Source: Candidatus Micrarchaeota archaeon (GTDB lineage Archaea; Micrarchaeota; Micrarchaeia; Micrarchaeales; CABMGC01). From it: a stretch of 64,000 nt of DNA. Where the stretch lies: positions 5,623-69,622 of the forward strand of contig DAHXNY010000002.1 in the NCBI GenBank assembly GCA_027365175.1, given 5' to 3'. The position numbers and the translations under genes are program-made. Below, in pieces: positions 2,455-36,392 of this stretch (its first letter is position 1; every line of letters starts with the position of its first letter). The notes below the pieces were generated by a model. It was not told the DNA's origin. It saw only the letters and a program-made list of their open reading frames with translations, and made no database searches.

Positions 2455-3936
2455 ATGGAAAAGAGCGAGATAAGGGCAGAGGACATAGTAAAAAGGAGAT
2501 CTATATTCTACAAGGCATTCGGAATATACGGCGAACCTGCGGGCTTCTACGATTATGGGCCGATAGGCCTTGCCATAAAGAGGAACATAGAAAGGGCATG
2601 GAGGAAGGCAGTGCCGGAGCACCCCGGATTCATAGAGATAGAAGTAACTACACTCGCCCCCGAACCTGTATTCAAGGCAAGCGGCCATCTCTCAACATTT
2701 ACCGATCCGATAATAGTCTGCAGCTCCTGCCATGCAGGCAACAGGGCTGACAAGATTCTCGAAAGCTTCTATTCGAAGAAAGATGACAAGGCAGCTATAA
2801 CTGCACTTAGGAAGATGGACACAAAGAGCATGGCAGCCGAGATAAAGAAGAGCAAGCTCAAGTGCGAGAAATGCGGCACCGAACTTACAGGCGCTGTAGA
2901 GTACTTCAATCTGATGTTCAAGACCTATGCCGGCCAGGGGACTGCAGAACCTATGTATCTAAGGCCTGAAACCGCACAGGGCATATTCATGGACTTCAAG
3001 GAGCTGTACAGGCTGAATTCACTGAAGCTTCCATGTGGCGTATGCCAGTCGGGAAAGGCATACAGGAACGAGATATCGCCAAGGCAGCAGCTTGTGCGGA
3101 TGCGCGAATTCACGCAGATGGAAGCTGAGCTCTTCTACGATCCGAAGACAGATTTCAACAATACTCCCCTTGGGGAGTACTCCAAGAGCCATAAGCTATT
3201 CGAGACAAAGATACGCTTTGCGGAGAGTGGAAAGGATCCCAAGCAGATCAGCATAAATGAATTGATAGACTCGAAGAAGGTGCCTAACGGGTACTTTGCA
3301 TTCCTAATATACAAGGACTATGAATTCATGAAGAGCATAGGCTTTGAGACAGAGGAGTACTGGTTCAGGGAGATAGAGAAGGAGGAGCTGCCGCATTATT
3401 CAAGGTGCAACCTTGACATTGAAATTGAAACCTCGTACGGAACGATAGAGGTTACGGGCATAGCAGACAGGGGAACATTCGACCTGCAGTCGCATTCAAA
3501 GCTATCTGGACAGGATCTTGCAATAATGAACAACGAGGAGAAGGTGCTTCCGAGCGTTGCCGAGCTTAGCATAGGCCTTGACCGCATACTTCTTGCGATT
3601 CTAGACAAGAAGACGGTGGACGATAAGGAAAGAGGATGGAAGTGGCTTAAACTGGAAAAGAGCATGGCACCTTACGATTATTCGATATTCCCTCTTCAGA
3701 AGGAAGAGAAGCTGGTGGCCATGGCAATGAAGATAAGCGAACATCTGAAGGAGAAGGGCCTGAAATGCAACTATTCCGATTCGGCCAGCATAGGCAAGCG
3801 CTATGCAAAGAGCGACGAGATAGGGGTTGCAAATGCAATCACTATCGATTTCCAGAGCCTTGAGGACAACACAGTTACGATAAGGGACAGAAATACTGCA
3901 GGGCAGAGGCGCGTAAAATGGGAAGAGATAGCCTGA
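2455..3936 (+). CDS. glyS: Glycyl-tRNA synthetase (class II, archaeal/eukaryotic type)
   Basis: 493 aa with class II motifs (YLRPETAQGIF, GKAYRNEISPR, SIGLDR) and a C-terminal anticodon-binding-like region. Confidence 0.9.
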   Translation: MEKSEIRAEDIVKRRSIFYKAFGIYGEPAGFYDYGPIGLAIKRNIERAWRKAVPEHPGFIEIEVTTLAPEPVFKASGHLSTFTDPIIVCSSCHAGNRADKILESFYSKKDDKAAITALRKMDTKSMAAEIKKSKLKCEKCGTELTGAVEYFNLMFKTYAGQGTAEPMYLRPETAQGIFMDFKELYRLNSLKLPCGVCQSGKAYRNEISPRQQLVRMREFTQMEAELFYDPKTDFNNTPLGEYSKSHKLFETKIRFAESGKDPKQISINELIDSKKVPNGYFAFLIYKDYEFMKSIGFETEEYWFREIEKEELPHYSRCNLDIEIETSYGTIEVTGIADRGTFDLQSHSKLSGQDLAIMNNEEKVLPSVAELSIGLDRILLAILDKKTVDDKERGWKWLKLEKSMAPYDYSIFPLQKEEKLVAMAMKISEHLKEKGLKCNYSDSASIGKRYAKSDEIGVANAITIDFQSLEDNTVTIRDRNTAGQRRVKWEEIA

Positions 3937-4784
3937 TCATAAAAGGGCCGTTTGACATAAGGAACAGCATAGAGAGCGGGCAACCTCTCGCCTTCCACGC
4001 CGAATATGCACACAGCGGCAAATCCTTTGCATTATCATACGCAACTTCCAGAGGAGTGATGAAAGCCACTCTGAAAGGCAAGCGGCTGGAGTATTCATGG
4101 CAGGGCGATTATAATCCAGGGAGTGCAAAGGAAGAGATAGAGAGGCGGTTCCGCATAAAGGACAACATGCCATCGATATACAGGAAGATATGCACAGACG
4201 AATTCATGAGGAGTGCAATATCTGCATACAACGGCATGCGTGTAACGCAGAACGATCCGTGGGAAACAACATTATGCTTCATACTCTCGCAATTCAACAA
4301 CATGAAGAGGATACGCGGCTCCGTGCGCATGCTGATAAATACGTATGGCACCGGCATTGAGGGAAGCGGAAAGAAGCTCTTCCCTTCTGCAGAACAGATT
4401 AAGGGTGCAAGCATAGAGGAGCTGATGAGACATGGTGCGGGCTTCCGTGCGAAGTACATAAAGCACGCTGCAGATTTCTGCACTGAGAATCTTGACCTGC
4501 AGTCGCTCTACAGGAAGGATTATGAAGATGCAAAGGAAGCTATAATGGAGATAGATGGAGTGGGGGACAAGGTTGCAGACTGCATAATGCTCTTCGCATA
4601 CAACAAGATGGAGGCCTTCCCCATAGACACGTGGGTCAAGAGGGTTCTAGAGACGGTATATTTCAATGGCAAGAAGAAGAAAATAAGGGAGCTGCACCAG
4701 TTTGCGTCTGAAAGATGGCCTGGAATGGAAGGATACGCCCAGCAGTACCTATTCTGGCATGCACGATCAATGAAGCTAAGGTGA
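3918..4784 (+). CDS. ogg: 8-oxoguanine DNA glycosylase/AP lyase (HhH-GPD, Ogg type)
   Basis: HhH-GPD motif IDGVGDKVADCIMLFAY...FPIDTWVKRV. Overlaps the glyS 3' end by 19 nt. Confidence 0.75.
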   Translation: MGRDSLIIKGPFDIRNSIESGQPLAFHAEYAHSGKSFALSYATSRGVMKATLKGKRLEYSWQGDYNPGSAKEEIERRFRIKDNMPSIYRKICTDEFMRSAISAYNGMRVTQNDPWETTLCFILSQFNNMKRIRGSVRMLINTYGTGIEGSGKKLFPSAEQIKGASIEELMRHGAGFRAKYIKHAADFCTENLDLQSLYRKDYEDAKEAIMEIDGVGDKVADCIMLFAYNKMEAFPIDTWVKRVLETVYFNGKKKKIRELHQFASERWPGMEGYAQQYLFWHARSMKLR

Positions 4785-4788
4785 AGGT

Positions 4789-5349
4789 ATGATAAACGAC
4801 ATAAAGCAGGTTGAAAAGAAGATACAGGATCTGGAGGAGCAGAGGGAGCAGGTCCTATCTCTCTCAAGGGAGCTTATACGCAATGCAGGAAAGGCCATAG
4901 TCGCAATGCATGCGAAGGACAACGCCAAGGCAAAGAAGCTCCTGTCAGACATGGAAGCCATAAGAAACAGACTGACGGATGTGGAGAGCGGATTCGAGTA
5001 TAATTCATTGCAGGCTCATCAGGAGTATGTGGAAGCAAGGATACTGGATGGCATAATCGCCAAGAAGAAGATACTTGGCATGAAGGAGCTCGGCGTTGAC
5101 GAGAAGGCATACACGCTCGGGCTGATGGATGTCGTTGGGGAGCTAAAAAGAGAGGCAATAGACTCTCTGCTGAACAACAACCCCAAAGCTGCTGAGACAT
5201 ATTACGCTTTTATGGTAGACATATACGATTCGACTTTGCACCTGAGATTTGCAAACGCCGTACTGCCTGATTTCAGAAGAAAGCAGGATTCAGCAAGGAT
5301 ACAGGTTGAGAATACCGCAAGCGAGATACTCAGGACAAAGCAGAAATGA
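4789..5349 (+). CDS. Translin-family protein (COG2178-like)
   Basis: 186-aa helical protein. The overall pattern (QEYVEA...YTLGLMDVVGELKR...RRKQD) resembles archaeal translin-like proteins. A GGTGA SD precedes the ATG. Confidence 0.55.
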   Translation: MINDIKQVEKKIQDLEEQREQVLSLSRELIRNAGKAIVAMHAKDNAKAKKLLSDMEAIRNRLTDVESGFEYNSLQAHQEYVEARILDGIIAKKKILGMKELGVDEKAYTLGLMDVVGELKREAIDSLLNNNPKAAETYYAFMVDIYDSTLHLRFANAVLPDFRRKQDSARIQVENTASEILRTKQK

Positions 5350-5350
5350 G

Positions 5351-5956
5351 CTATATGACCGAACCGAGGTAAGCTCCCAACGCGGCGAGTACGGGTATTG
5401 AAAGATTATCATTCACCAGATTGCCTGCATCACCGATCATGCCTATTACGGAAGAGAGTATGGCTATCAAAGCAGCTCCTGTGAGTGCATATGTGAGAAT
5501 CATACTGACTAAAATCCCCATGCATATCCCTATAAACGACCTTCTCCTCCGAAGCAATGCCTTTGTCATGCCGCTGACAGAGTCTCCAAACGTAAGGCAG
5601 ACTGTAGAAGCTATTACTATCTGGGGCCCGAAGAATGCAATTGCAAATAAGCTGCCGATTATCCAATACGGGACGCGCATCCTCTTCCATCTCTCTTTGA
5701 AGGTGCCATTCACGGTGCTTCTTGAGAAGCTCCTTAACAGGATTGCCGTGGGGGTATTGTATCCATAGCGTATTCTTAAAAACTCGGAAGAGAGCATGAA
5801 TACAAGATATATTACGTAAATAGCCAGTTCTGTGAGCCTGGAAAGGCCCAGAAATACGAAAAGAATCGGCCAGAATGTCAGAAGTACATGTGCAAGCTTA
5901 CGCCTTGCCTCAAAACCCAGATGCTCATTGGTCATTCGAAACACACCAGGCAACAC
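5351..5956 (-). CDS. Polytopic membrane protein, dolichol kinase/cytidylyltransferase family (COG0170-like)
   Basis: Six or so hydrophobic segments. N-terminal RKLAHV and FGDSVSGM motifs resemble SEC59/phytol kinase-type proteins. Confidence 0.5.
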   Translation of the reverse strand: MLPGVFRMTNEHLGFEARRKLAHVLLTFWPILFVFLGLSRLTELAIYVIYLVFMLSSEFLRIRYGYNTPTAILLRSFSRSTVNGTFKERWKRMRVPYWIIGSLFAIAFFGPQIVIASTVCLTFGDSVSGMTKALLRRRRSFIGICMGILVSMILTYALTGAALIAILSSVIGMIGDAGNLVNDNLSIPVLAALGAYLGSVI

Positions 5957-6509
5957 GGCGGCTTTTCGACCTAAGTTCTTCTTTCACATCGGTGTTGTTA
6001 TCTACTGTAAAGTCAGATTTATCTATTACGTCATTCACTCCAACGATAAGTTTTACGGAGTCCTTCCTTTCTGCCTCTCTGGTTCCGTTAACTATGCCTC
6101 CTCCTATCCTATTAGTCACTCTTGCTATTCTCTTTGACCTGTCTGCAAATACATTTACTATGACGCAGTTTCTGCCGCCAAAGCCTGTAATCATCCACTC
6201 TGCAAGCTTGTACTCGTATAAACCATCTACTATTACGCTGCCTGACTTGTAAAGAGTGTCTGCTGCCCTAAGGATAACGGGTCTTGCAGCCTCAAAGCAC
6301 TCTATTGCTCCTTCATGCCTGATGAAATCAGAAATGCCATCAAATCCATTGTCCTTTGCAAAAGAGCGCATCTCCTGCCCTATGCTGAGCACCCGGCCTT
6401 TAAACGCATCCCTAAGCATGGAAGAGAGTTCGGTCTTGCCGCTCCCTGAATAGCCTGTTACCATTATTACCTTGTTTTTTGCAGAAACTGCCATAAGCTC
6501 ACTCAACAT
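5925..6509 (-). CDS. P-loop NTPase, nucleoside/nucleotide kinase-like
   Basis: Walker A VTGYSGSGKT near the N-terminus, about 190 aa. No further family assignment is possible by eye. Confidence 0.5.
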   Translation of the reverse strand: MLSELMAVSAKNKVIMVTGYSGSGKTELSSMLRDAFKGRVLSIGQEMRSFAKDNGFDGISDFIRHEGAIECFEAARPVILRAADTLYKSGSVIVDGLYEYKLAEWMITGFGGRNCVIVNVFADRSKRIARVTNRIGGGIVNGTREAERKDSVKLIVGVNDVIDKSDFTVDNNTDVKEELRSKSRRVAWCVSNDQ

Positions 6510-6909
6510 GAAACCTTATGAAATCTCCAAGGCCTTCTATAACATCTGCATCGACGGCTTCCTCCAAGCGCATCCATGCATAATCATCATGGTCTTTGCT
6601 CATATTTATGCTTTTTCCGGAATAATCCCCTTTATAAACGAGCATCACTGCGTGGAAGTCACTGCCCTTCGCACTCATCTGCACGGTATAAACTCCCACG
6701 AAAGCCGGATCTATAATCTTTCCTCCTGTCTCCTCGTCAATCTCCCTGTTCAAAGTATCCATTACCTCCTCTCCCCACTCCATCTTTCCACCTGGGAGCT
6801 GCCATTTTCCTCCCGCCCATGAACTGCTCTTAACTCTCTTCAGGAAGAGGAATTTCCCATGTCCGTCATGGAGAAGGGCGCCTACCCATACTATTATCCG
6901 TTTATCCAT
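6499..6909 (-). CDS. NUDIX hydrolase
   Basis: Nudix box GGKMEWGEEVMDTLNREIDEETG. Confidence 0.8.
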   Translation of the reverse strand: MDKRIIVWVGALLHDGHGKFLFLKRVKSSSWAGGKWQLPGGKMEWGEEVMDTLNREIDEETGGKIIDPAFVGVYTVQMSAKGSDFHAVMLVYKGDYSGKSINMSKDHDDYAWMRLEEAVDADVIEGLGDFIRFHVE

Positions 6910-7128
6910 ATGAAAAACACCTTAATACCGCATGGGCCATACACTTACTTGCGTGTGCCATTAAATGCTGCATAGCAAGTGCATATTCCACAATGCAGAA
7001 AGATTAACTGGATGACAGCAAGATGCTTAATCTCAGTTAAATAACTATCGTTCCGGTTACCTGCCTGACAAACTCTGCCATTTGAAAACGGCATCCTGTA
7101 AAGCAGCAGATGCCTGCTAACCGAAAAG

Positions 7129-7137
7129 CTTATATAT
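7129..7137 (+). promoter_or_regulatory. TATA-like box upstream of the 7181-10198 operon
   Basis: cttatatat lies 44 nt upstream of the ATG at 7181. A partial SD (gagtgag) sits at 7168-7175. Confidence 0.35.
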
Positions 7138-7180
7138 CTAACAAGTATACATTCTTTTACTAAAGTAAAAGAGTGAGTAT

Positions 7181-7570
7181 ATGAGTATAATAAGAGAAAT
7201 CAGGATAAAAGGCACGGTGCGGAGTGTCTGCACGAAGATTCCCTTGATAGGACTGATGGCATTCCTTGCCACTGTGAAGTATACCTACGCGGCCGCGTTC
7301 ACATTCGACATAATAGGAACACTCTCCTATGTGCAGACGCTGCTGATGCATGTAGGGCCTCTGCTCAGTGCGCTTCTGTTCATAATAGCGGGAATCTTCT
7401 ACGCGCTAGGGCAGCTCTTCCCTTCATACCAGCGTGCCAGTTTCCATACGACCGCAATAGACATAATAATCGGCGCGATAATCGTCGCCGTACTATCCTT
7501 TGCATCCAATGGTTTTGCTCTTGCTTCAACGCATCTACTGAGCAACCTGACAATAGCTAATGCGACGTGA
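7181..7570 (+). CDS. Small membrane protein with VirB2/TrbC-pilin-like (or CedA1/A2-like) topology
   Basis: 129 aa with a signal-like N-terminus followed by two long hydrophobic helices. First gene of a tight four-gene operon. Confidence 0.4.
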   Translation: MSIIREIRIKGTVRSVCTKIPLIGLMAFLATVKYTYAAAFTFDIIGTLSYVQTLLMHVGPLLSALLFIIAGIFYALGQLFPSYQRASFHTTAIDIIIGAIIVAVLSFASNGFALASTHLLSNLTIANAT

Positions 7571-8631
7571 AGCCTATGGACATGCTGCCGTTTGGTGCTT
7601 ATGGCTTCAGCATAGCCGTTTACGTGATAGGGATAATGCTATCGGTAGCTGGGATATCGCTGGGGATAGGGTATGCTGCAAACAAGAGATCCCTAAAGGA
7701 ATTCGGCAAAGAGGAGATATATCAATCGGTTATAAACGGCGTTCTGGTAGGGAGCATGCTCCTTCTCTTCTCTCAGAACGGGATTGTCAACAGCATGATA
7801 AACCAGATAACACTCTACAATTCAACGAGCATAACCTGCCAGTCGTACATGTCCGGCAACGCGGCTCTCTGCCTTGCATATGATTATCTTGCAGGCAGCG
7901 GTTACACATACGCAGGCACATTCCACCAATCCATCCTCTCATCCGTCACAACTCTGATGGTCGACCTGCTGGGCTTAAATACTATCCTTGGAGTTATAGG
8001 CTCTATAAGCATCAATCTGGTTGTCGTCAGCATATCCCTGGGTTCGGTAGTCAACCCTCTGATATCCCAGATAATGTACTTCGTAAGAATACTGACCACT
8101 ATACTTACTGGAGTGCTTGTGCAGTCCTCTATACTGATATTCATATCGCTCACTGCAACTACCTTAATACTGCCAGCGGGCCTGATACTGAGGTCCTTCT
8201 ACCCCACAAGGAAGCTCGGCGGATTCCTAATAGCTCTCGCTATAGGGCTCTACGTAGTACTTCCATTGTCATACGTGATGAATGCGATGATCGCTAACTC
8301 ATATTCGCAGACACTGAGCAACAGTAGCCTAGTCAGTCTTACCTCAAGCGCGTCAGGCTTCAAGAATACCCTTACCGGCATACCTGAAATAAAGAACCAG
8401 TCAGATTACGGACGGGCACTTTCATTCCTCGGGACCATAACTAATGGCATATCTGGCATATCCGATTACTTCTCAGGAATAGTAAACTGGCTGGTATCAA
8501 GCATAGCTTACTTCATCGTATACACGTTCATACTTCCAGGATTCAGCCTTATTCTGACGATAATCTCAGTAAGGGAGCTGTCAGCTATGCTCGGTTCAGA
8601 GGCGTTCTTTGATCTTTTCAGGGTTATGTGA
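7567..8631 (+). CDS. Polytopic membrane protein (VirB6/TrbL/CedA-like candidate)
   Basis: 354 aa with about 7-8 hydrophobic segments and one Ser/Asn-rich loop. Its start overlaps the previous stop (ATGA). Confidence 0.4.
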   Translation: MKPMDMLPFGAYGFSIAVYVIGIMLSVAGISLGIGYAANKRSLKEFGKEEIYQSVINGVLVGSMLLLFSQNGIVNSMINQITLYNSTSITCQSYMSGNAALCLAYDYLAGSGYTYAGTFHQSILSSVTTLMVDLLGLNTILGVIGSISINLVVVSISLGSVVNPLISQIMYFVRILTTILTGVLVQSSILIFISLTATTLILPAGLILRSFYPTRKLGGFLIALAIGLYVVLPLSYVMNAMIANSYSQTLSNSSLVSLTSSASGFKNTLTGIPEIKNQSDYGRALSFLGTITNGISGISDYFSGIVNWLVSSIAYFIVYTFILPGFSLILTIISVRELSAMLGSEAFFDLFRVM

Positions 8632-9342
8632 ATGGAGGAGATAAACAGGTTAAACAGGCTATACTCATATGCATTCTACTCCGCGGCAGTCCTGGTGCTG
8701 ATAGCTTCCGCAATCGCAAACAGCAGCTATGCCTTGATCAGTGCGATACTGCTCCTGTTATCAGCAGTCTATCTTAACTCTGGGCACATGATAAACAACA
8801 TGCTGATCAAAAGGTCAAGAGTAATAATCATAAGGAATGGATATAAGCTTGGCAGGAACCTCTCCTCCGCAGTCATACGCAATGGCGATTCATATACTGG
8901 AATATCGATTGCAGAATTCATTGTAAACAAGCACGTAGACAAAAGTTCATTCGAGCCTATTATAAACAACATAAAGGATCCCTTTGAGTTCTCAATATCA
9001 ATGAGGGAGGTGGACAGGGTTCGCCTAATCGAATCACTAGAAACGAAGAAGCGCGTAAAGGAGATCGCCCTTTCAAGAATAGAGCCGAAGATGTACAACA
9101 AGATAAACCAGGTAAAGAAGGAGATAGAGGTGATAGAGAAGGAAATGGCAAACATAACCGGTGGCGGAAGATCCCTTGAGATATCGATAAAGGTAAAGGC
9201 GATTAAAAACTCCATGGAAAGGATGGAAGCAGAGAGCGAACCTCCAAGGAGCATAGTGAGGATTGCAAATGCCTTCTGCACCAACCTGGGCCTCGATTAC
9301 AGGATACTCTCAGGAGAGGAGCTGCTTGCAAACATAATGTGA
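8632..9342 (+). CDS. Membrane-anchored protein resembling the N-terminal domain of VirB4/TrbE/CedB ATPases
   Basis: 236 aa with an N-terminal TM hairpin and a soluble alpha/beta-looking domain. Abuts the previous gene and precedes the ATPase by 4 nt. Confidence 0.4.
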   Translation: MEEINRLNRLYSYAFYSAAVLVLIASAIANSSYALISAILLLLSAVYLNSGHMINNMLIKRSRVIIIRNGYKLGRNLSSAVIRNGDSYTGISIAEFIVNKHVDKSSFEPIINNIKDPFEFSISMREVDRVRLIESLETKKRVKEIALSRIEPKMYNKINQVKKEIEVIEKEMANITGGGRSLEISIKVKAIKNSMERMEAESEPPRSIVRIANAFCTNLGLDYRILSGEELLANIM

Positions 9343-9346
9343 TCGC

Positions 9347-10198
9347 ATGAAGGGCAAAACCGTATACTCATCAAGTACCGTCTCCAAGCTGCTGGATATT
9401 CCTTACACAGAGGAACCCAATGCATTAGAGATAATGGAAACTGTCCATAATGGCATATTCATAGGCAATTCTGGCAAGATGAACCTGCCTGTATTCCTTG
9501 ACTTTGCCTCTTTATTCAACCCTCACGTATTCATAGTCGGGATGACAGGCAGCGGCAAGACCTTCCTTATGAAAAGCCTCCTGATGCGCCTCAGCTTCAT
9601 AATGGGCGCAAATGTCATAATAGTGGATTTCACAGGCGAATACCGGGAAGCTGCAAGCCTTATAGGTGCAGACTTCCACAACGGTGCGGATAAATCCGGA
9701 AGTGCCGGACTCTCAAGAAGTTCGTACTTCATGCTAAAGAACCTGAAGGAAAATGAGAAGGTGGCGTGCGCTTCAGAGATACTCAAATCTGTGGCAACAA
9801 AGATGCGCGGCAACATCGGCAGGAAAGACAATACGTTTATCCTTCTTGATGAGAGCTGGAAGCTCATGGACAACAATGAAGACCTTGAGATTATAGTAAG
9901 GGAGGGCAGGAAATACGGCGTCGGACTGCTCCTGGCGTCACAGCTCCTTGAGGACATGAGCGATGGAATAGTCTCAAACTCAGCATCAATCTTCATATTC
10001 AGGATACAGGTAAAGAAGAGCGCAGAAAAGATAATCTCAAATTATAATCTTGGGCAGGAGTATGTCGAAAATATACAGGGCCTGGATCAGGGAAAATGCC
10101 TGCTAATAAAGCTGGATAAAAACAATAAGCGCTCAATCACGATAATAAGGAAGGTATCCGGGATATCAATAAACCCTAAAACAAGGCTGCTGCTCTGA
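9347..10198 (+). CDS. VirB4/TrbE/HerA (DUF87)-type P-loop ATPase domain protein
   Basis: Walker A VGMTGSGKTF, Walker B FILLDESWKL and the GRKYGVGLLLASQ motif typical of this ATPase clade. Confidence 0.7.
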   Translation: MKGKTVYSSSTVSKLLDIPYTEEPNALEIMETVHNGIFIGNSGKMNLPVFLDFASLFNPHVFIVGMTGSGKTFLMKSLLMRLSFIMGANVIIVDFTGEYREAASLIGADFHNGADKSGSAGLSRSSYFMLKNLKENEKVACASEILKSVATKMRGNIGRKDNTFILLDESWKLMDNNEDLEIIVREGRKYGVGLLLASQLLEDMSDGIVSNSASIFIFRIQVKKSAEKIISNYNLGQEYVENIQGLDQGKCLLIKLDKNNKRSITIIRKVSGISINPKTRLLL

Positions 10199-10220
10199 CG
10201 GATCCGGGAAACTATGCAAT

Positions 10221-11294
10221 TCACTTGCTTGCCATGTGCAATGATATATACGCACTTATGCTCTGGACCGTTACCATCCCCATAAGCTTCCCATTCTTAG
10301 TAACTGCGGCAATCCCCGGGCCGCTATTCACTTTGTTAAGCGCGTCTATTACGCCTGTCATATAATCTATGTTTGGCAAAGGCACCAGAAGATCCTTTAT
10401 CCCAACCGGATGTGCCTTCTGGACCTTCCTTATTCTTGAAAGATCCACATAGTAGTAAGATTCTCTCGTCCTTGTGAATATCCTGTGCTTCTTTGATCTC
10501 TTCACTTTGCTATAAAGCCCCTTCATGCTTATATCCGAATCCACTAGGAAGTAATCCTTGCTAACCATATCCGAAAGCTTCAGCCCGTCCGTCCTCTTTC
10601 TCATTACCGCAGTCTCCTCCTCCTGCTTCGCTCCTCCATACAGGAAGAAGACTATTATCAGCGTGTATACGAATTCAAAGGCAGCATAGTCAACAATGCC
10701 CTGATTGAAGTTCTGGCTGTAAACCTGGAAACCCATGAATGCTATGGCGCCTATGAGTATAAGACCAAGCATATACATGCTCACCTTTACTGTGAGCATG
10801 GTTGCATCATAGGCATCCATCCTCTCCTGAAGGTAGCTCTCAAGCACCCTTCCACCATCCATAGGGAAAGCCGGGATAAGGTTAGACACCCCAAGGAAGA
10901 TGTTTATTATGAACATGAATTGCAATATCTCCGTTATTATTCCAGGAGGAGAGAAGACTACAAGTATGCCGAATATCCCGCCAAGCAAAAGGCTTGATAT
11001 CGGCCCTACTACCGATATGTTGAACTCTACCCTCGGATCTATATTCAGTTCGTCTATTATGGAGGCTCCTCCTATCGGGAGCAGGATTATCTCCCTGACC
11101 TTTATCCTGTTCCTAAGCGCTGTTACAGAGTGTGAAAACTCATGGATAAGCACGCATGCAAACAAAAGCACAAAGAGCATGAAGAGGAACTCGCTTCCAA
11201 GAAGAAGGATCGCAAGCAGCATAAGTATGAAGGTCCAATGCAGTGTTACGTCTATCCCGAATATCCTGAATATGCGTATCCCAGAGAGTGCCAT
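10221..11294 (-). CDS. Site-2 protease (peptidase M50) with C-terminal CBS pair
   Basis: HEFSHS (HExxH) and NLIPAFPMDGGRV motifs in a polytopic N-terminal part, with a CBS-like C-terminus. Confidence 0.85.
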   Translation of the reverse strand: MALSGIRIFRIFGIDVTLHWTFILMLLAILLLGSEFLFMLFVLLFACVLIHEFSHSVTALRNRIKVREIILLPIGGASIIDELNIDPRVEFNISVVGPISSLLLGGIFGILVVFSPPGIITEILQFMFIINIFLGVSNLIPAFPMDGGRVLESYLQERMDAYDATMLTVKVSMYMLGLILIGAIAFMGFQVYSQNFNQGIVDYAAFEFVYTLIIVFFLYGGAKQEEETAVMRKRTDGLKLSDMVSKDYFLVDSDISMKGLYSKVKRSKKHRIFTRTRESYYYVDLSRIRKVQKAHPVGIKDLLVPLPNIDYMTGVIDALNKVNSGPGIAAVTKNGKLMGMVTVQSISAYISLHMASK

Positions 11295-11355
11295 CCAAAT
11301 TCCTTATACTAACTAAATAATACTTATTAAGTGGAAAGTTTATAATCAGTATAAT

Positions 11356-12072
11356 ATGGACATCTCTTTTATAAACGGCGAACCAGCTCTGTTCATCAGG
11401 AAGGAAAAGCAGCTTGCGGTATCCGACCTGCACATAGGGTTAGAGACAAGGCTGAGCGAATCCGGAATACACCTCTCCAATGCGGTTGACCTCCTTGCAG
11501 ACGACCTATTAAATGCATACAGGAAGAGCGGGGCAAAAGGGATAATCTTCATGGGGGATTTTAAGGAGCGCATAATGTACATGACAAAAACCGAACGGGA
11601 CTCGATGCTGAGGTTCTTTGCAAAATTGTCAGGCATAGAATGCAGGTTCATAAGGGGAAACCATGACGCGCATCTTGAAGAGATTCTTAGGAACGTGGGC
11701 ATTAGGAAAGCACTTGAGAATGAGATATTGCTTGACAAGGTGGCATTAATGCATGGCAATGCTCTGCCTTCAAGAGAGTCCATGGAGAAAAACTACCTTG
11801 CAGTTGGCCATGGGCACTTCGCTGCGAGCATAAACGGAGCTGAACGCAAGGTCTGGTTCATTGCAAAGCCTGGACCACGTGCAAAGGAGGAATATCCAGG
11901 ATATAATAAAAAGATAAAACTTGTCATACTCCCGGCGTTCAACAGGGCGATAACAGGCACGGACATAAGCCGAGGCTCAGAGGAGCACATGCCTCTGTTA
12001 AGGAATAAGGTATTCGATTTCAACTCCGCAAAGATAATGGATCTGGAAGGCATAGAATTGAAAGCGCATTAA
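11356..12072 (+). CDS. Metallophosphoesterase (COG1407-type ICC-like phosphoesterase)
   Basis: Calcineurin-like motif series SDLHIG, GDF, GNHD and GH. Confidence 0.75.
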   Translation: MDISFINGEPALFIRKEKQLAVSDLHIGLETRLSESGIHLSNAVDLLADDLLNAYRKSGAKGIIFMGDFKERIMYMTKTERDSMLRFFAKLSGIECRFIRGNHDAHLEEILRNVGIRKALENEILLDKVALMHGNALPSRESMEKNYLAVGHGHFAASINGAERKVWFIAKPGPRAKEEYPGYNKKIKLVILPAFNRAITGTDISRGSEEHMPLLRNKVFDFNSAKIMDLEGIELKAH

Positions 12073-12092
12073 TTACGCAGAAGCTGACAGGT

Positions 12093-12512
12093 TTACAATC
12101 CCTTCTTAAATTCTTCATGCTGCCTGCGGGCTTCCTTAATTACCATATCCAAGTTCTCCCTCATCTTTAAACCATCCTGCCTGATATTCACTCCCAAGAT
12201 AGTCAATCCTATTCCTGCAGAAACAAGAACCAGTCCTGCAAAATCAGCAGGATCCTTAATCAATGAGCTCAATCCCGTTCCTTCTACCACAACTCCGGCA
12301 AACACCGAGCCCAGACAGGTTAAAGAGCTGAATACGATGCGCCTGCTCGCCTGCTTATATACTGCCATGGCAGTATCATTATCCTCTCTCCTCATCACGC
12401 TTCCCAATTCCCTTAACTTAACGTGGCCGCATATGTTTTTTGAATCGAACTCAAGTATGCCGTCAGTCAGTCTCCTGACCTTTTTCCGGTGTGTCTCCAC
12501 AGTATCATACAT
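12093..12512 (-). CDS. Hypothetical protein with two central hydrophobic segments
   Basis: 139-aa ORF in a plausible intergenic context. No recognisable motif. Confidence 0.3.
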   Translation of the reverse strand: MYDTVETHRKKVRRLTDGILEFDSKNICGHVKLRELGSVMRREDNDTAMAVYKQASRRIVFSSLTCLGSVFAGVVVEGTGLSSLIKDPADFAGLVLVSAGIGLTILGVNIRQDGLKMRENLDMVIKEARRQHEEFKKGL

Positions 12513-12604
12513 ATGCAGCCTTTTCTGATTATTAAACTCTTCCTGCAGGCCCTGCGGTGAACCGGTATTTAAGGCTTTACAAACAATAAGACCATGATGG
12601 TTTC

Positions 12605-12967
12605 ATGGCCGAAGAAAAGAAGATAAACAACGAACTGGATCATGCTAACGAAGCATTCTATGCAAATGGTTTTACGCTGTGGGTAGATGGAAATGAGGCT
12701 ACCATGGACTTCAGGCAGACCTCTCCACGCAACGATGTGCTTCCAAACGGCGAAGCGTTTCTCTCAGTTACCCATAAGCACCGCGCAGTGGTGACCTCTC
12801 CGCTTGTTGCAAAAATGATGCTGGAGGTGCTGAAAGGCGAGATAGCCAAATTTGAAAAGAAGAACGGAGAGATAAAACTTCCTGCAAACTGGAAGCTGAA
12901 GCCGCCTCCGAAAGTTAAAGTCTCAAACGATGAAGGGACAGAAGGCAGTGCAACGTACATACGCTAG
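12605..12967 (+). CDS. DUF3467-like protein
   Basis: The pattern FYANGFTLWVDGNEATMDFRQ resembles DUF3467. Confidence 0.45.
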   Translation: MAEEKKINNELDHANEAFYANGFTLWVDGNEATMDFRQTSPRNDVLPNGEAFLSVTHKHRAVVTSPLVAKMMLEVLKGEIAKFEKKNGEIKLPANWKLKPPPKVKVSNDEGTEGSATYIR

Positions 12968-12994
12968 AAAACAGTTTCAGACAACGCAGCAGAT

Positions 12995-14188
12995 TCAGGC
13001 CAATCTTCTCTGCCGCGTTACCTGCCTGAGGACATTGCTGTTCTCCATCCATGTAGGTATCGGTATGGCCATCCTCTTTCCTATAAATTCTATGGCGCTT
13101 CCAACGCTGTCGAAGTGCAGCGGCTCCTTTCTCAATGCCTCTCTGACATGCTCTCTAACGTTCCATACTCCAACAGGCATGATGTATCCGGAGTGCGCCT
13201 CTCTAAGGATGGCGACCTTGGCCTGCCTGTCCATCTTGAGCAGCAACTCTGAAGAAGCGAGCCTTGCAGCATAATAGCAGCCCCCTATCTCTGCATATTT
13301 GCTCCTTCCTTTGTAAGGCTCATAGGATGAGAATATCTGTATATTGCTGCTCTCCCTGTTCCATGTGGTATTAGGGTACCATGCCTCAACAAGCTCATAC
13401 TCCCACGAGCCGGGGAACATCATTATCAGCCACCTGTTGTCAAGTGCATCATTCTGGTACACGAGCACCTCCTCAAACTCTTCGCTATCCTTCACTGTCT
13501 TCAGGTTATTCTTTCCAAGCGTATCATCCACTGCAGTTATGCTCCATCTTGTCGGGACAAGCCTGCGGTTCTTGCCGACTCCCACCGTGCCTGCTGAGAC
13601 CATCTTCTGTATCCTTGAAACCTCTATTCCTTTTGAATAAAGCTCAACCATCGCAGTGCTTGCAGTCATATCCGTGTCCGAATAAGCCTTCTCAAGTGTC
13701 TGGTTGACCTTGCCTCCTTCAAGCTCCATTCTCTTAATCACTGCGCTCGGCCCGAAGGGCTGTGTATTCTCATCGAATCTTATGCGCATGTCGGGCCTTT
13801 TGGAAAACTCCTGTCTCACAAGCTCATACCTGTCAGAAATGGCAAGCTCCTTTATCATTTCCTCTACCCTTCCATTATCTGCATTGTTGACATTGGTGCG
13901 GTGCATTCCCCTTACCAGCATCGATCTGAACTCCACTATCTCTGCAATGCTCTTGCCGACCCACTTCTCCGGAATCCCCATAATGGACGTATCCCCAATA
14001 GTCGGAGGGACAAGCGGCCCTATGTAGACATTCGGATATCCTGCCCTGCCTATGAATATATCGGGCGGAGATGATCCGTAAACCTCATTGCCTTCTATCA
14101 TGTTTAGTACTCTTGACCTGTAATAATCCTTGAGGAAAGCGGAGCTCTTCATGTTCCTGTACACGACGCCGCTTCGTACTATTTCCAT
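12995..14188 (-). CDS. Nre-family (DUF650/DUF651, COG1602) putative DNA repair protein
   Basis: 397 aa. The N-terminal YGSSPPDIFIGRAGYPNVYIGPLVPP block is typical of archaeal NreA/NreB. Confidence 0.65.
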   Translation of the reverse strand: MEIVRSGVVYRNMKSSAFLKDYYRSRVLNMIEGNEVYGSSPPDIFIGRAGYPNVYIGPLVPPTIGDTSIMGIPEKWVGKSIAEIVEFRSMLVRGMHRTNVNNADNGRVEEMIKELAISDRYELVRQEFSKRPDMRIRFDENTQPFGPSAVIKRMELEGGKVNQTLEKAYSDTDMTASTAMVELYSKGIEVSRIQKMVSAGTVGVGKNRRLVPTRWSITAVDDTLGKNNLKTVKDSEEFEEVLVYQNDALDNRWLIMMFPGSWEYELVEAWYPNTTWNRESSNIQIFSSYEPYKGRSKYAEIGGCYYAARLASSELLLKMDRQAKVAILREAHSGYIMPVGVWNVREHVREALRKEPLHFDSVGSAIEFIGKRMAIPIPTWMENSNVLRQVTRQRRLA

Positions 14189-34623: not shown

Positions 34624-34659
34624 ACAGCTTTCTACGCACACTAATGGTTTTTTGTTTTG

Positions 34660-36145
34660 AGGTGATCTATCCGCAGGTTCCCCTACGGATACCTTGTTAC
34701 GCCTTAGCCCCCCTCACAGAACCTTAATTCGAAAGCATCTTAAAGATGCTGCCTCACTAAGGCCCTACTTGGATGACTTGGCGGGCGGTGTGTGCAAGGA
34801 GCGGGGACAAATTCACCGCTCGTTAGTGACAAGCGATTACTAGGGATTCCAACTTCATGAGGGCGAGTTTCAGCCCTCAATCCGGACCGGGACTGGTTTT
34901 AGGGATTGGCTCCTCATCTCTGAGTTGCAGCCCATTGTGCCAGCCTATGTATGCCGCGTGTAGCCCTGGAGATTCGGGGCATACTGACGTACCGTTGCCC
35001 TCTCCTTCCTCCTTCTTAAACGAAGGCGGTCTTGACAGAGTGCTTGAATTATCGCTAATCCAGTGGCAACTGTAAATGAGGGTCTCGTTCGTTACCGGAC
35101 TTAACCGGATAGTTCACACCACGAACTGACGATCGCCATGCACCACCTCTCGGCTTGTCTAGTAAGGTCTTTAGCCTGACCTTCATTCTGCCGTCGCTCC
35201 AGGTAATGTTTCCGACGTTGAATTCAATTAAACCGTAGCATCCACCCCTTGTTGTGCTCCCCCGCCAATTGCTTTAAGTTTCAACCTTGCGGCCGTACTC
35301 CCCAGGCGGCAGACTTAACAGTTACCCTACGGTACTGCAACCACACGTGGCAGTTGCAACACCAAAGTCTGCATCATTTACTGCTAGGGCTACTCGGGTA
35401 TCTAATCCGATTCGTTCTCCTAGCCTTCGTCACTCACCGTCGGATACGTTCTGGTCAGGCGCCTTCGCCACCGGTAGTCTTCATAGGATTACGGGATTTT
35501 ACTCTTACCCCATGAATACTCCTGACCTCTCCCGCTCCCTAGCCAAAAGGTATCTTATGCACGTATTGGCGTCATGCGCCAATATTTCACACAAGACGGT
35601 TTTAGCCGGCTACGGACTCTTTAAGCCCAATAATAGTGAACACCACTTGTGCCGCCGGTATTACCGTGGCGGCTGCCACCGGTCTTACCCAGCACTTATT
35701 CTCCAAGCTTGCTAAACTTGGCAAAAGATCCACCGAAGTGAATCACTCAGACTCCCCCCATCACGCTTCCGCGCATTGTGGAGATTGCGCGCCTGCTGCA
35801 CGCCGTAGCGCTAGGGCCATTGTCTCAGTGCCCTTCTCGGGGCTCTTACTCTCATATCCCCTACGGGTCAAAGGTATGGTGGGCCGTTACCCCGCCATCT
35901 GCCTGATCCGACGCAGTCTCATCGTAGAGCGGTAATGCTCCAATTCGCAACCTTTTCAGTTAGGACTCATTCCAGAATTCCTATCCTATATGGTATTAGC
36001 CTCAGTTTCCCAAGGTTATCCCCTTCTCTACGGTAGATTGACCACGCGTTACTGAGCCGTACGCCGCTCACAGAAGTCTGTAAGCTGACTTGCATGGCTG
36101 TCGAAATCTGATAGCAGTGTCCTCCAGCAGCATCGACTGGAGTTA
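34660..36145 (-). rRNA. rrs: 16S ribosomal RNA (about 1.49 kb, no large insertion)
   Basis: Reverse complement starts ..ACTCCAGTCGATGCTGCTGGAGGACACTGCTATCAG and ends ..GTAACAAGGTATCCGTAGGGGAACCTGCGGATAGATCACCTCA. 530-loop and 900/1400 regions are recognisable. Ends are +/-5 nt. Confidence 0.95.
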
Positions 36146-36321: not shown

Positions 36322-36392
36322 GGGTTCGTAGTCCAACGGTAAGACGCTACCTTCACACGGTAGAGACCGGAGTCCGACTCTCCGCGGACCCA
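36322..36392 (+). tRNA. tRNA-Val (anticodon CAC), 71 nt
   Basis: Acceptor GGGTTCG/CGGACCC (one G-U), anticodon arm CTACC-TTCACAC-GGTAG, T arm CGGAG-TCCGACT-CTCCG. The T-loop is unusual (UCC instead of UUC) and the D stem is 3 bp. Confidence 0.75.

Follow-up and report, generated by a model that had tools for sequence, protein, structure and literature searches.

In the R388 model of type IV secretion systems (T4SS), VirB2, VirB3, VirB4 and VirB6 form the pilus-assembly core; VirB4 drives the extraction of pilin and the assembly of the pilus, and substrate transfer requires further ATPases. The closest described archaeal systems, Ced and Ted, are domesticated T4SS derivatives made from VirB2-, VirB6- and VirB4-like parts (PMC9905601). 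Ted consists of a VirB2-like pilin with an apparently cleaved N-terminal signal (TedC), the VirB6-like TedA and the VirB4-like TedB, often together with a HerA-like second ATPase (PMC9905601), whereas the Ced pilins have been reported as unprocessed (PMC9905601) and the Ced layout has two ATPases, CedB plus CedD (PMC11868833). Here we analyze a module of four genes in a 64,000-nucleotide (nt) stretch of contig DAHXNY010000002.1 from Candidatus Micrarchaeota archaeon, which we call the window. We label the genes of the operon to which the module belongs g1 to g9, those of the window being g1-g4; other loci carry labels of the type L001, and the window itself is labelled WIN in comparisons. With a probability of about 0.72, g1-g4 encode a functional, T4SS-derived apparatus of a pilin and a split VirB4-type ATPase. 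The module is a domesticated, Ced/Ted-like T4SS derivative, chromosomal and vertically inherited, and is not a member of the Ced or Ted families. A literature search, whose coverage was incomplete so that an earlier description is possible, found no paper describing the operon in Micrarchaeota.

The four genes and their products

The module consists of four open reading frames (ORFs) on the plus strand, with products of 129, 354 (from a GTG start), 236 and 283 amino acids (aa): g1 at 7181-7570, g2 at 7567-8631 from the GTG, g3 at 8632-9342 and g4 at 9347-10198. A previous analysis, made from the DNA letters and called here the sequence-only reading, had described these genes as one tightly packed unit. 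The sizes, the abutment at 8631/8632 and the 4-nt gap at 9343-9346 all hold, but the ATGA overlap that it placed at 7567-7570 does not: the four letters read GTGA, and a g1/g2 overlap hinges on the GTG start of g2. Because relatives begin g2 at residues equivalent to the ATG at 7576 (MDMLPFG.. versus MNILPFG..), homologues favour taking the gene as 7576-8631 (351 aa), which would leave a 5-nt gap to g1 instead of an overlap. The g2 stop codon (TGA, 8629-8631) directly abuts the g3 ATG at 8632, the g3 stop (9340-9342) is followed by the gap tcgc and the g4 ATG at 9347, and the g4 stop (10196-10198) is separated by 22 nt from a convergent gene for an M50/S2P protease.

The first product is predicted to be the precursor of a VirB2/TrbC-type pilin, as had been proposed. 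The window protein itself matches Pfam TrbC at E 0.029, with 15 bits against a threshold of 27.9 bits and thus below the cut-off, but across the g1 family TrbC (PF04956) is matched by 38 of 59 members (best 4e-6) and T4SS_pilin (PF18895) by 29 of 59 (best 3e-7), while any other family is matched by 12 members at most. Using comparison proteins drawn from R388 and 16 other plasmid regions, hhalign aligned g1 to eleven proteobacterial VirB2 proteins at E 0.0019 over the helix-loop-helix; the family HMMER profile gave nothing significant against all PDB sequences. The protein has a Sec-type, signal-like N-terminus ending ..KYTYA/A, followed by two hydrophobic segments (residues 50-83 and 86-117) that are joined by a conserved basic loop (Q/K-R-A-x-F-H; KRAxFH), and its C-terminus carries N-x-T sequons at 122 and 127. 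In the family alignment the N-terminus is variable and signal-like and the mature part is highly conserved. Simple hydropathy likewise agrees with the topologies first described for the module: it gives g1 a signal-like N-terminus and two helices, g2 about 6-7 transmembrane (TM) helices and g3 a hairpin.

The fourth product is predicted to be a P-loop ATPase of the FtsK/HerA superfamily, equivalent to the C-terminal motor domain of VirB4/CedB. The motifs GMTGSGKT, ILLDESW and GRKYGVGLLLASQ are present in the window as reported, and the residues that are invariant in the family are K71 (Walker A, GMTGSGKT), D168 and E169 (Walker B, LLDE), R185 and R188 (the arginines of REGRKYG) and Q199, the protein beginning about 35 residues ahead of Walker A. 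Pfam gives AAA_10 (1e-14), DUF87 (1.5e-14) and TrwB_AAD_bind (1e-8). The best NCBIfam match is CedB (9e-19), which is matched by all 15 family members (best 3e-22) and is followed by CedD, TraC, CD1110-type VirB4 and HerA; the match to the CedB model is limited to the ATPase core (model positions ~247-317 and beyond). In profile comparisons g4 aligns to Gram-positive, CD1110-type VirB4 with a probability of 99.3 and an E-value of 4.7e-20 (g4 32-256 versus VirB4 417-752), and to proteobacterial VirB4 with a probability of 96.4.

The third product is best read as a membrane anchor plus the N-terminal half of a split VirB4-type ATPase. Its N-terminal TM hairpin (within residues 10-54 by hydropathy, ~2-61 as a domain) stands in a VirB3-like position and is followed at residues ~68-236 by an alpha/beta domain with a coiled coil. 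When an AlphaFold2 model of g3 (predicted local distance difference test score, pLDDT, 76.6) was searched against the PDB with Foldseek, TrwK/VirB4 chains from R388 filled ranks 1-12 (for the best, probability 1.0 and E 4.6e-4; ~150 columns) and no HerA chain appeared in the top 50. Sequence profiles give a fainter signal: the alignments to Gram-positive VirB4 (E 0.019, 130 columns, g3 100-238 versus VirB4 233-372) and to PrgI/VirB3 (E 0.035 over 22 columns) are weak, those to proteobacterial VirB4 (E 0.3) and to the N-terminal region of g9 (E 0.23), a further gene of the full operon, are non-significant, and there is no Pfam or PDB sequence match. The VirB4 segment matched by g3 lies just N-terminal of the one matched by g4, i.e., the two are colinear, and VirB3 is fused to VirB4 in some plasmids. 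Taken together, g3 and g4 are best read as a VirB3-like hairpin, a VirB4 N-terminal region, a split and a VirB4 motor. This division into two proteins is found throughout the family and is not peculiar to the window genome.

The sequence-only reading had also regarded g3 and g4 as a VirB4/CedB-type ATPase in two pieces. That idea is carried by the TrwK folds found for g3, the 99.3% alignment of g4 to VirB4, the colinearity of the two matches and CedB as the closest family, with one limit: the ATPase core of g4 alone does not separate from HerA, and the assignment rests on context and on g3. We also considered a simple split of the ~370-aa homologues of g4 and rejected it, as the 85-90 aa by which those are longer are C-terminal and not N-terminal.

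The second product is presumably the pilus-assembly platform or channel, an analogue of VirB6 by position and topology. In gene order it comes after the pilin and before the VirB3/4 equivalent. The protein spans the membrane with about 6-7 TM helices; two cysteines (C91 and C102) in an extracellular loop are invariant, as is the motif LPxGLILRxFYPTRKLGG, and a loop rich in Ser/Thr/Asn is variable. Its AlphaFold2 model (pLDDT 83.6, predicted template-modelling score 0.76) found nothing below E 1e-3 in Foldseek, where TrwI/VirB6 (7o3v_G) was a weak match at rank 3 (E 0.15, probability 0.77, TM-score 0.29-0.36). No Pfam, NCBIfam or PDB sequence match was obtained (Pfam was run on 61 members plus 10 distant relatives, and the family HMMER profile against the PDB), and tblastn against 72,556 plasmids gave nothing significant. 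For hhalign, ten proteobacterial VirB6 and four Gram-positive CD1112/PrgH proteins served as comparison sets, L101 and L102 being left out as not VirB6-like. The sole stretch over which g2 and VirB6 align comprises the top conserved motifs of both, LPxGLILRxFYPTR in g2 and GPIFIxxLxFxxTR in VirB6, both of which follow a TM helix and can be written as P-x-x-(I/L)-(I/L)-...-F-x-x-T-R. Given the missing database matches, the non-significant profile alignments and the weak fold match, the earlier description of g2 as VirB6/TrbL/CedA-like can be kept only as a tentative one.

A profile of the g2 family retrieved 2,037 cluster representatives, 746 of them below 1e-10, from a library of 1.84 billion proteins, and the family has no Pfam model. 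Distant members of the family are arranged in tandem, 6-7 paralogues to an array, on other archaeal contigs (L083:4549-11303; L084:5849-13312; L103:7786-20288; L104:5726-14202; L105:31-2185), where some carry insertions in the variable extracellular loop that give proteins of 600-1,457 aa.

The operon across Micrarchaeota and its reduction

A distribution scan of one genome per GTDB species yielded 79 loci, nearly all labelled Micrarchaeota; ORFs were called in all loci, and iterative hidden Markov models were built from the genes of a close relative. The genes g1, g2, g3 and g4 were found in order in 78, 80, 82 and 83 of 83 loci from other genomes, so that the arrangement is far beyond chance and the co-conservation that the sequence-only reading needed is observed. 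About 79 Micrarchaeota genomes have a conserved operon of nine genes, of which g1-g4 make up the first half. Downstream on the same strand follow g5 (~226 aa, 73 loci), which ends in a weak winged helix-turn-helix (wHTH), g6 (~150-200 aa, 63 loci), two small TM ORFs and g9 (~735 aa, about 40 loci, with some others cut by contig ends). The last of these is predicted to be a second, full-length VirB4/CedD-like ATPase: it is VirB4-like over 473 columns (hhalign probability 98%, E 1.5e-13), it matches CD1110 VirB4 and CedD (for CedD E 1e-9, with 37.7 bits against a 600-bit cut-off), and its sole tblastn matches in the plasmid collection are Enterococcus conjugative VirB4 (CD1110).

In the closest relative with a full operon (L001/L007), g1-g4 are 82, 80, 65 and 62% identical to those of the window and are followed by g5-g9 and then by genes for Nre, NUDIX and an M24 peptidase, whose window counterparts (84, 58 and 70% identical) also lie 3' of the module. 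The window g4 ends right after the ATPase core and is missing the ~85-aa C-terminal domain of its ~370-aa homologues, g5-g9 were not found in the whole 64 kb, and their place is taken by two small genes and those for the M50 protease and a phosphoesterase. Exactly this arrangement recurs in four other genomes (L004, L005, L006 and L030), and the loss of g5-g9 and of the g4 C-terminal domain is therefore ancestral to a clade of five genomes. The "minimal" system of the sequence-only reading, which missed the g5-g9 context, is thus a lineage-specific truncation of a phylum-wide operon and not an original state.

A second such case is found in a distant lineage. In L074 (1928-5139 plus 10 kb downstream) g4 has 283 aa, is 33% identical to the window g4 and likewise ends right after the ATPase core, and g5-g9 were not found in the 10 kb downstream, which carry purF-, purD- and folD-type (purine/folate) genes instead. 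L074 is an independent reduction to the same four genes. The C-terminal ~85 aa of full-length g4 (e.g., L001:5450-5736) are conserved and helical, with the consensus ..LxxLIxxLIxxGADRxxxLxxxRxLG....ADAF.., and the absence of this domain from both lineages that lost g5-g9 suggests that its role is to link the g4 motor with the components encoded downstream.

The reduced module is not in decay. Among the five genomes of the reduced clade, with synonymous divergence (dS) up to about 2, the ratio of nonsynonymous to synonymous divergence (dN/dS) is 0.06-0.11 for g1, 0.03-0.09 for g2, 0.04-0.11 for g3 and 0.12-0.22 for g4, compared with 0.04-0.08 for housekeeping neighbours. From these values we conclude that the four genes are maintained by strong purifying selection, g2 being the most conserved of the module.

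Chromosomal setting and upstream region

The host is a Micrarchaeote and hence belongs to the DPANN archaea: every g4 homologue with a source name is labelled Micrarchaeota, and the window contains an archaeal 16S rRNA gene at 34657-36143 on the minus strand. This agrees with the host-dependent type of archaeon that had been suspected. The 16S gene has no adjoining 23S gene, so the rRNA genes are unlinked, and a tRNA-Val gene lies at 36322-36392.

Upstream of the module are genes for an OGG-like glycosylase (HhH-GPD/OGG, 3918-4784), translin, a small kinase-like P-loop protein and NUDIX (6499-6909, minus strand); downstream are peptidase M50 (S2P, 10221-11294, minus strand), a metallophosphoesterase, DUF3467 and the DNA-repair-associated Nre (12995-14188, minus strand). 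The NUDIX and S2P genes that had been taken for housekeeping flanks were thus identified as such. A scan of ten flanking ORFs (3918-14188) found no gene for a relaxase, an integrase or a coupling protein, nor is there a relaxase or VirD4-type coupling protein in the conserved g1-g9 operon, and the GC content of the module equals that of its surroundings. Nre lies convergently at the operon's 3' end in at least 20 loci, where NUDIX and an M24 peptidase usually come next, and this fixed position argues for vertical, chromosomal inheritance. The conserved position, the scanned flanks and the strong purifying selection all fit the chromosomal, non-mobile locus that was first proposed.

An OGG-like glycosylase gene also lies upstream of the operon in 11 loci, and the association with repair genes (Nre, OGG) may be either functional or merely syntenic. 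Elsewhere the upstream genes differ. L001 (69-2288), and also L007, have genes for a Dcm-type DNA methylase, a Vsr endonuclease and a MutH-like protein directly upstream of g1. The three look like a cassette for restriction-modification or very-short-patch repair; in the window this place is occupied by the NUDIX and kinase-like genes. In L028 (6185-7741, minus strand) and L033 (6185-7741, minus strand) an extra gene for a 518-aa g4/g9-like ATPase lies on the opposite strand directly upstream of g1.

About 45 nt 5' of the g1 ATG there is a predicted archaeal promoter on the plus strand (7123-7137), consisting of a BRE-like GAAAAGC (7123-7129) and the TATA box TTATATAT (7130-7137). The element AAAG(C/G)TTATATAT / TTTAAATAT is found at equal distance 5' of g1 in all 12 Micrarchaeota loci inspected. 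The unit as first delimited began at 7129, which falls within this BRE/TATA box. Between promoter and gene lies a plus-strand leader (7143-7177) with AAGTATA ... TTTACT / AAGTAAAAG repeats and a Shine-Dalgarno-like GAGTGAG (7171-7177). It is kept in WIN, L004, L030, L006 and L001 and is recognisable in distant loci; in L010 it is a perfect 12+12 palindrome, TTAAGTAAATAT followed by ATATTTACTTAA. A BRE/TATA element and then AAGTA...TACTT-type repeats occur within 90 nt upstream of g1 in L001, L004, L006, L008-L010, L014, L016, L023, L030 and L040. The repeats are a possible operator site, and the wHTH protein g5 of the full operon would be a candidate for its regulator. The operator-like leader is retained even in the lineage that lost g5.

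Proposed working, alternatives and comparison with known systems

As we picture it, g1 would be exported by Sec, have its signal peptide removed and be held in the membrane as a two-helix pilin. The VirB3-like hairpin would anchor g3 in the membrane, where its VirB4-N-terminal-like domain could dock the soluble g4 motor, and g3 and g4 would act as a split VirB4 hexamer that uses ATP to extract pilin from the membrane and deliver it to the g2 platform. From this platform a hollow, probably glycosylated pilus may grow and contact a Thermoplasmatales-type host or a conspecific. Dealing with the substrate would fall to g5-g9 in the full operon, and by analogy with Ced this substrate would most likely be DNA. 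Because g5-g9 and the g4 C-terminal domain are lost, the window lineage most likely still makes a pilus or contact channel, with reduced or altered translocation ability. We infer the partner cell, the cargo and the direction of transport from such comparisons, and Ced-like import of DNA by the module is a possibility that we consider less likely than not. A wider proposal is more speculative still and in our judgement rather unlikely. It would have the Micrarchaeota keep a phylum-wide, ancestral and vertically inherited conjugation-type pilus machine, made of a VirB2 pilin, g2 as a new platform family, a split VirB3-VirB4 and a second VirB4/CedD-like ATPase, that bridges to Thermoplasmatales hosts or to each other and imports DNA or other macromolecules, with the g2 family, including the paralogue arrays with giant extracellular loops in other DPANN, as the archaeal VirB6 counterpart used broadly for cell-cell interaction and the four genes as the minimal working set.

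Several observations weigh against a T4SS-derived pilin and split-VirB4 apparatus. No VirD4, VirB8, VirB1 or relaxase was found, and we infer pilus formation in this lineage from its genes alone. The likeness of g3 to VirB4 is at the level of fold (TMq 0.36-0.38), and the part of TrwK that was matched was not reported by the tool. For g4, the NCBIfam scores are far below their cut-offs (CedB 67.5 versus 700 bits; VirB4 TIGR00929 22.8 versus 643 bits), so that g4 does not qualify as a CedB orthologue by the equivalog model NF041017; the matches to PADLOC defence HerA (1.4e-21) and mad8 (7e-20) are on par with CedB, and HerA structures lead the PDB sequence searches. For g2, the hhalign comparisons with the two VirB6 sets are non-significant (E 0.27 and 0.11), and VirB3, VirB8 and VirB10 controls do equally well. 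The g2-paralogue arrays have no pilin or VirB4-like gene within 8-10 kb, which calls for caution in equating the family with VirB6, and the array of L104 is followed by a gene for a T2SSE (PF00437) ATPase. The g2 family is large and uncharacterised, and its tie to T4SS is not exclusive. Finally, the window lineage is without the second ATPase that Ced needs for import, where the absence of g5-g9 applies to 64 kb and the genes may lie elsewhere in the genome.

In one alternative the reduced lineage builds a VirB2-type filament solely for host attachment or biofilm and moves nothing. This lineage has kept exactly the genes for a pilin, a candidate platform and an equivalent of VirB3/VirB4 and has lost the second ATPase along with the wHTH protein; the same reduction arose twice, and purifying selection indicates that the remaining four genes are useful by themselves. 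However, all characterised systems with VirB2 and VirB4 move a macromolecule; g4, although less constrained than g1-g3, is intact with all catalytic residues kept; and the search for a second ATPase covered 64 kb, so that one may be encoded elsewhere. We give a pilus of this kind an appreciable minority chance. Secretion of effectors, proteins or other non-DNA cargo toward a host seems improbable. The organism does fall within the host-dependent DPANN archaea, no relaxase was found among the flanking ORFs scanned, and there are precedents in the T4SS-like host-interaction machines with VirB4/TraG-like ATPases proposed in nanohaloarchaea (PMC10266531) and in the relaxase-less T4SS that are widespread in Patescibacteria (PMC12102498). 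Against this, the operon holds no conserved candidate effector gene, the full operon encodes a DNA-binding-type wHTH protein and the nearest curated matches, CedB and CedD, are DNA translocases.

The matches of g4 to HerA, together with the adjoining DNA-repair genes OGG and Nre, could also be read as a membrane-associated HerA-type helicase for repair or anti-phage defence, with g1-g3 as accessory membrane proteins. We consider this very improbable, because no NurA, Sir2, DUF4297 or other effector partner is present, g1-g3 have no PADLOC match, the fold of g3 is matched by VirB4 chains and by no HAS-barrel chain of HerA, the family matches of g1 are those of a T4SS-type pilin, and both ATPases, g4 and g9, align with conjugative VirB4 (probability 98-99%). 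A HerA-NurA repair helicase was rejected, as g4 has no HAS-barrel and the flanks and operon contain no NurA, Mre11 or Rad50; a defence HerA system was rejected for want of partner genes. That the module is what is left of an integrated conjugative element or a virus in decay, with g4 as its former transfer or packaging ATPase, is a reading to which we attach hardly any credence. The module is truncated relative to the nine-gene form, and a tblastn search of the plasmid collection with g4 gave as its best match a packaging-type ATPase, encoded by a virus-like extrachromosomal element of Pyrobaculum (E 2e-5); STIV B204 is in the PDB list at 7.5e-4. Yet the VirB4/CedB matches are many orders of magnitude stronger than these viral ones, in five genomes whose divergence exceeds a dS of 1 none of the four frames is broken and dN/dS is 0.03-0.22, values that by themselves led us to reject a decaying remnant, the chromosomal position is conserved across the phylum, the flanks show no capsid, integrase or replication genes, and the module has no compositional deviation. 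A provirus or packaging ATPase (STIV B204 / A32-like) was rejected on the weak viral-type match, the lack of a capsid-like gene and the conserved, chromosomal operon. In the Pyrobaculum oguniense TE7 extrachromosomal element itself (L096, CP003317.1), the 223-aa ATPase gene (6179-6850) adjoins a putative major capsid protein gene, and this record, filed as a plasmid, looks like a provirus or episomal virus. Nor is the locus a self-transmissible conjugative T4SS, since neither flanks nor operon hold a relaxase or VirD4 and the chromosomal position is conserved.

Taken as a T4SS-derived pilin and split-VirB4 apparatus, the locus is a concrete candidate for how tiny, host-dependent DPANN archaea connect to, or take up material from, other cells. 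It defines a phylum-wide gene set for a conjugation-type pilus or translocon (pilin, membrane platform and split VirB4 motor) that can be sought in proteomes, purified filaments and cryo-electron tomography of Micrarchaeota co-cultures. It would extend domesticated T4SS of the Ced/Ted type from Crenarchaeota to DPANN and offers a natural VirB4 split at the boundary of the N-terminal and C-terminal domains. The two independent reductions to the same four genes indicate self-sufficient core components.

Like Ced of the Sulfolobales (CedA, CedA1, CedA2, CedB, CedD and CedE), the Micrarchaeota system is chromosomal, T4SS-derived and without a relaxase, and combines a small two-helix membrane or pilin protein, a polytopic membrane protein and a HerA/VirB4-like ATPase; the full operon, with its two paralogous ATPases, also compares with CedB plus CedD. 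The membrane proteins resemble those of Ced in topology (two helices in g1, 6-7 TM helices in g2), and searches of g1-g4 against NCBIfam at E<=1, where the presence of CedA and CedA1 models is unconfirmed, gave no match to CedA, CedA1 or CedA2. The systems differ in that the CedB and CedD models are matched at about 10% of their cut-offs, so the ATPases are not orthologues, and in that the first Micrarchaeota ATPase is split into the membrane-anchored g3 and the motor g4. The Micrarchaeota genes all lie in a single operon, whereas cedB is separate from cedA in Sulfolobus. For the Micrarchaeota system no Ups-like partner or UV induction is known, the window lineage has no second ATPase, and g1 has a signal of the cleavable type, unlike the unprocessed Ced pilins (PMC9905601). 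The descriptions of Ted of the Thermoproteales list, in common with the Micrarchaeota system, a signal-bearing VirB2-like pilin, a polytopic protein, a VirB4-like ATPase, a chromosomal locus and often a second ATPase; TedB, however, is a single polypeptide where g3 and g4 are split, and the ParA/VirC1-like and Rad50 genes of Ted loci were not seen in the Micrarchaeota operon.

Among conjugative systems, the monoderm MPF-FATA type (PrgH/PrgI/PrgJ; CD1112/PrgI/CD1110) has the order VirB6-like, VirB3-like, VirB4, which parallels g2, the g3 hairpin, and the g3 domain plus g4. The alignments of g4 and g9 to CD1110 VirB4 (99.3% and 98% probability) and the PF18895 matches of the g1 family point the same way. 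The Micrarchaeota operon differs from this type in having no VirD4-like coupling protein, relaxase, VirB8-like protein or cell-wall hydrolase, in not being on a mobile element, in its split VirB4 and in a g2 without detectable similarity to CD1112/PrgH. Compared with the R388/VirB inner-membrane complex (TrwL/VirB2, TrwM/VirB3, TrwK/VirB4 and TrwI/VirB6), the module has no outer-membrane complex, VirB5, VirB8-11 or VirD4, and the sequence-profile similarity of g2 and g3 to R388-type proteins is non-significant; at the level of fold, g2 resembles TrwI weakly and g3 resembles TrwK, and the set of genes retained in the window would correspond to the VirB2/B3/B4/B6 core.

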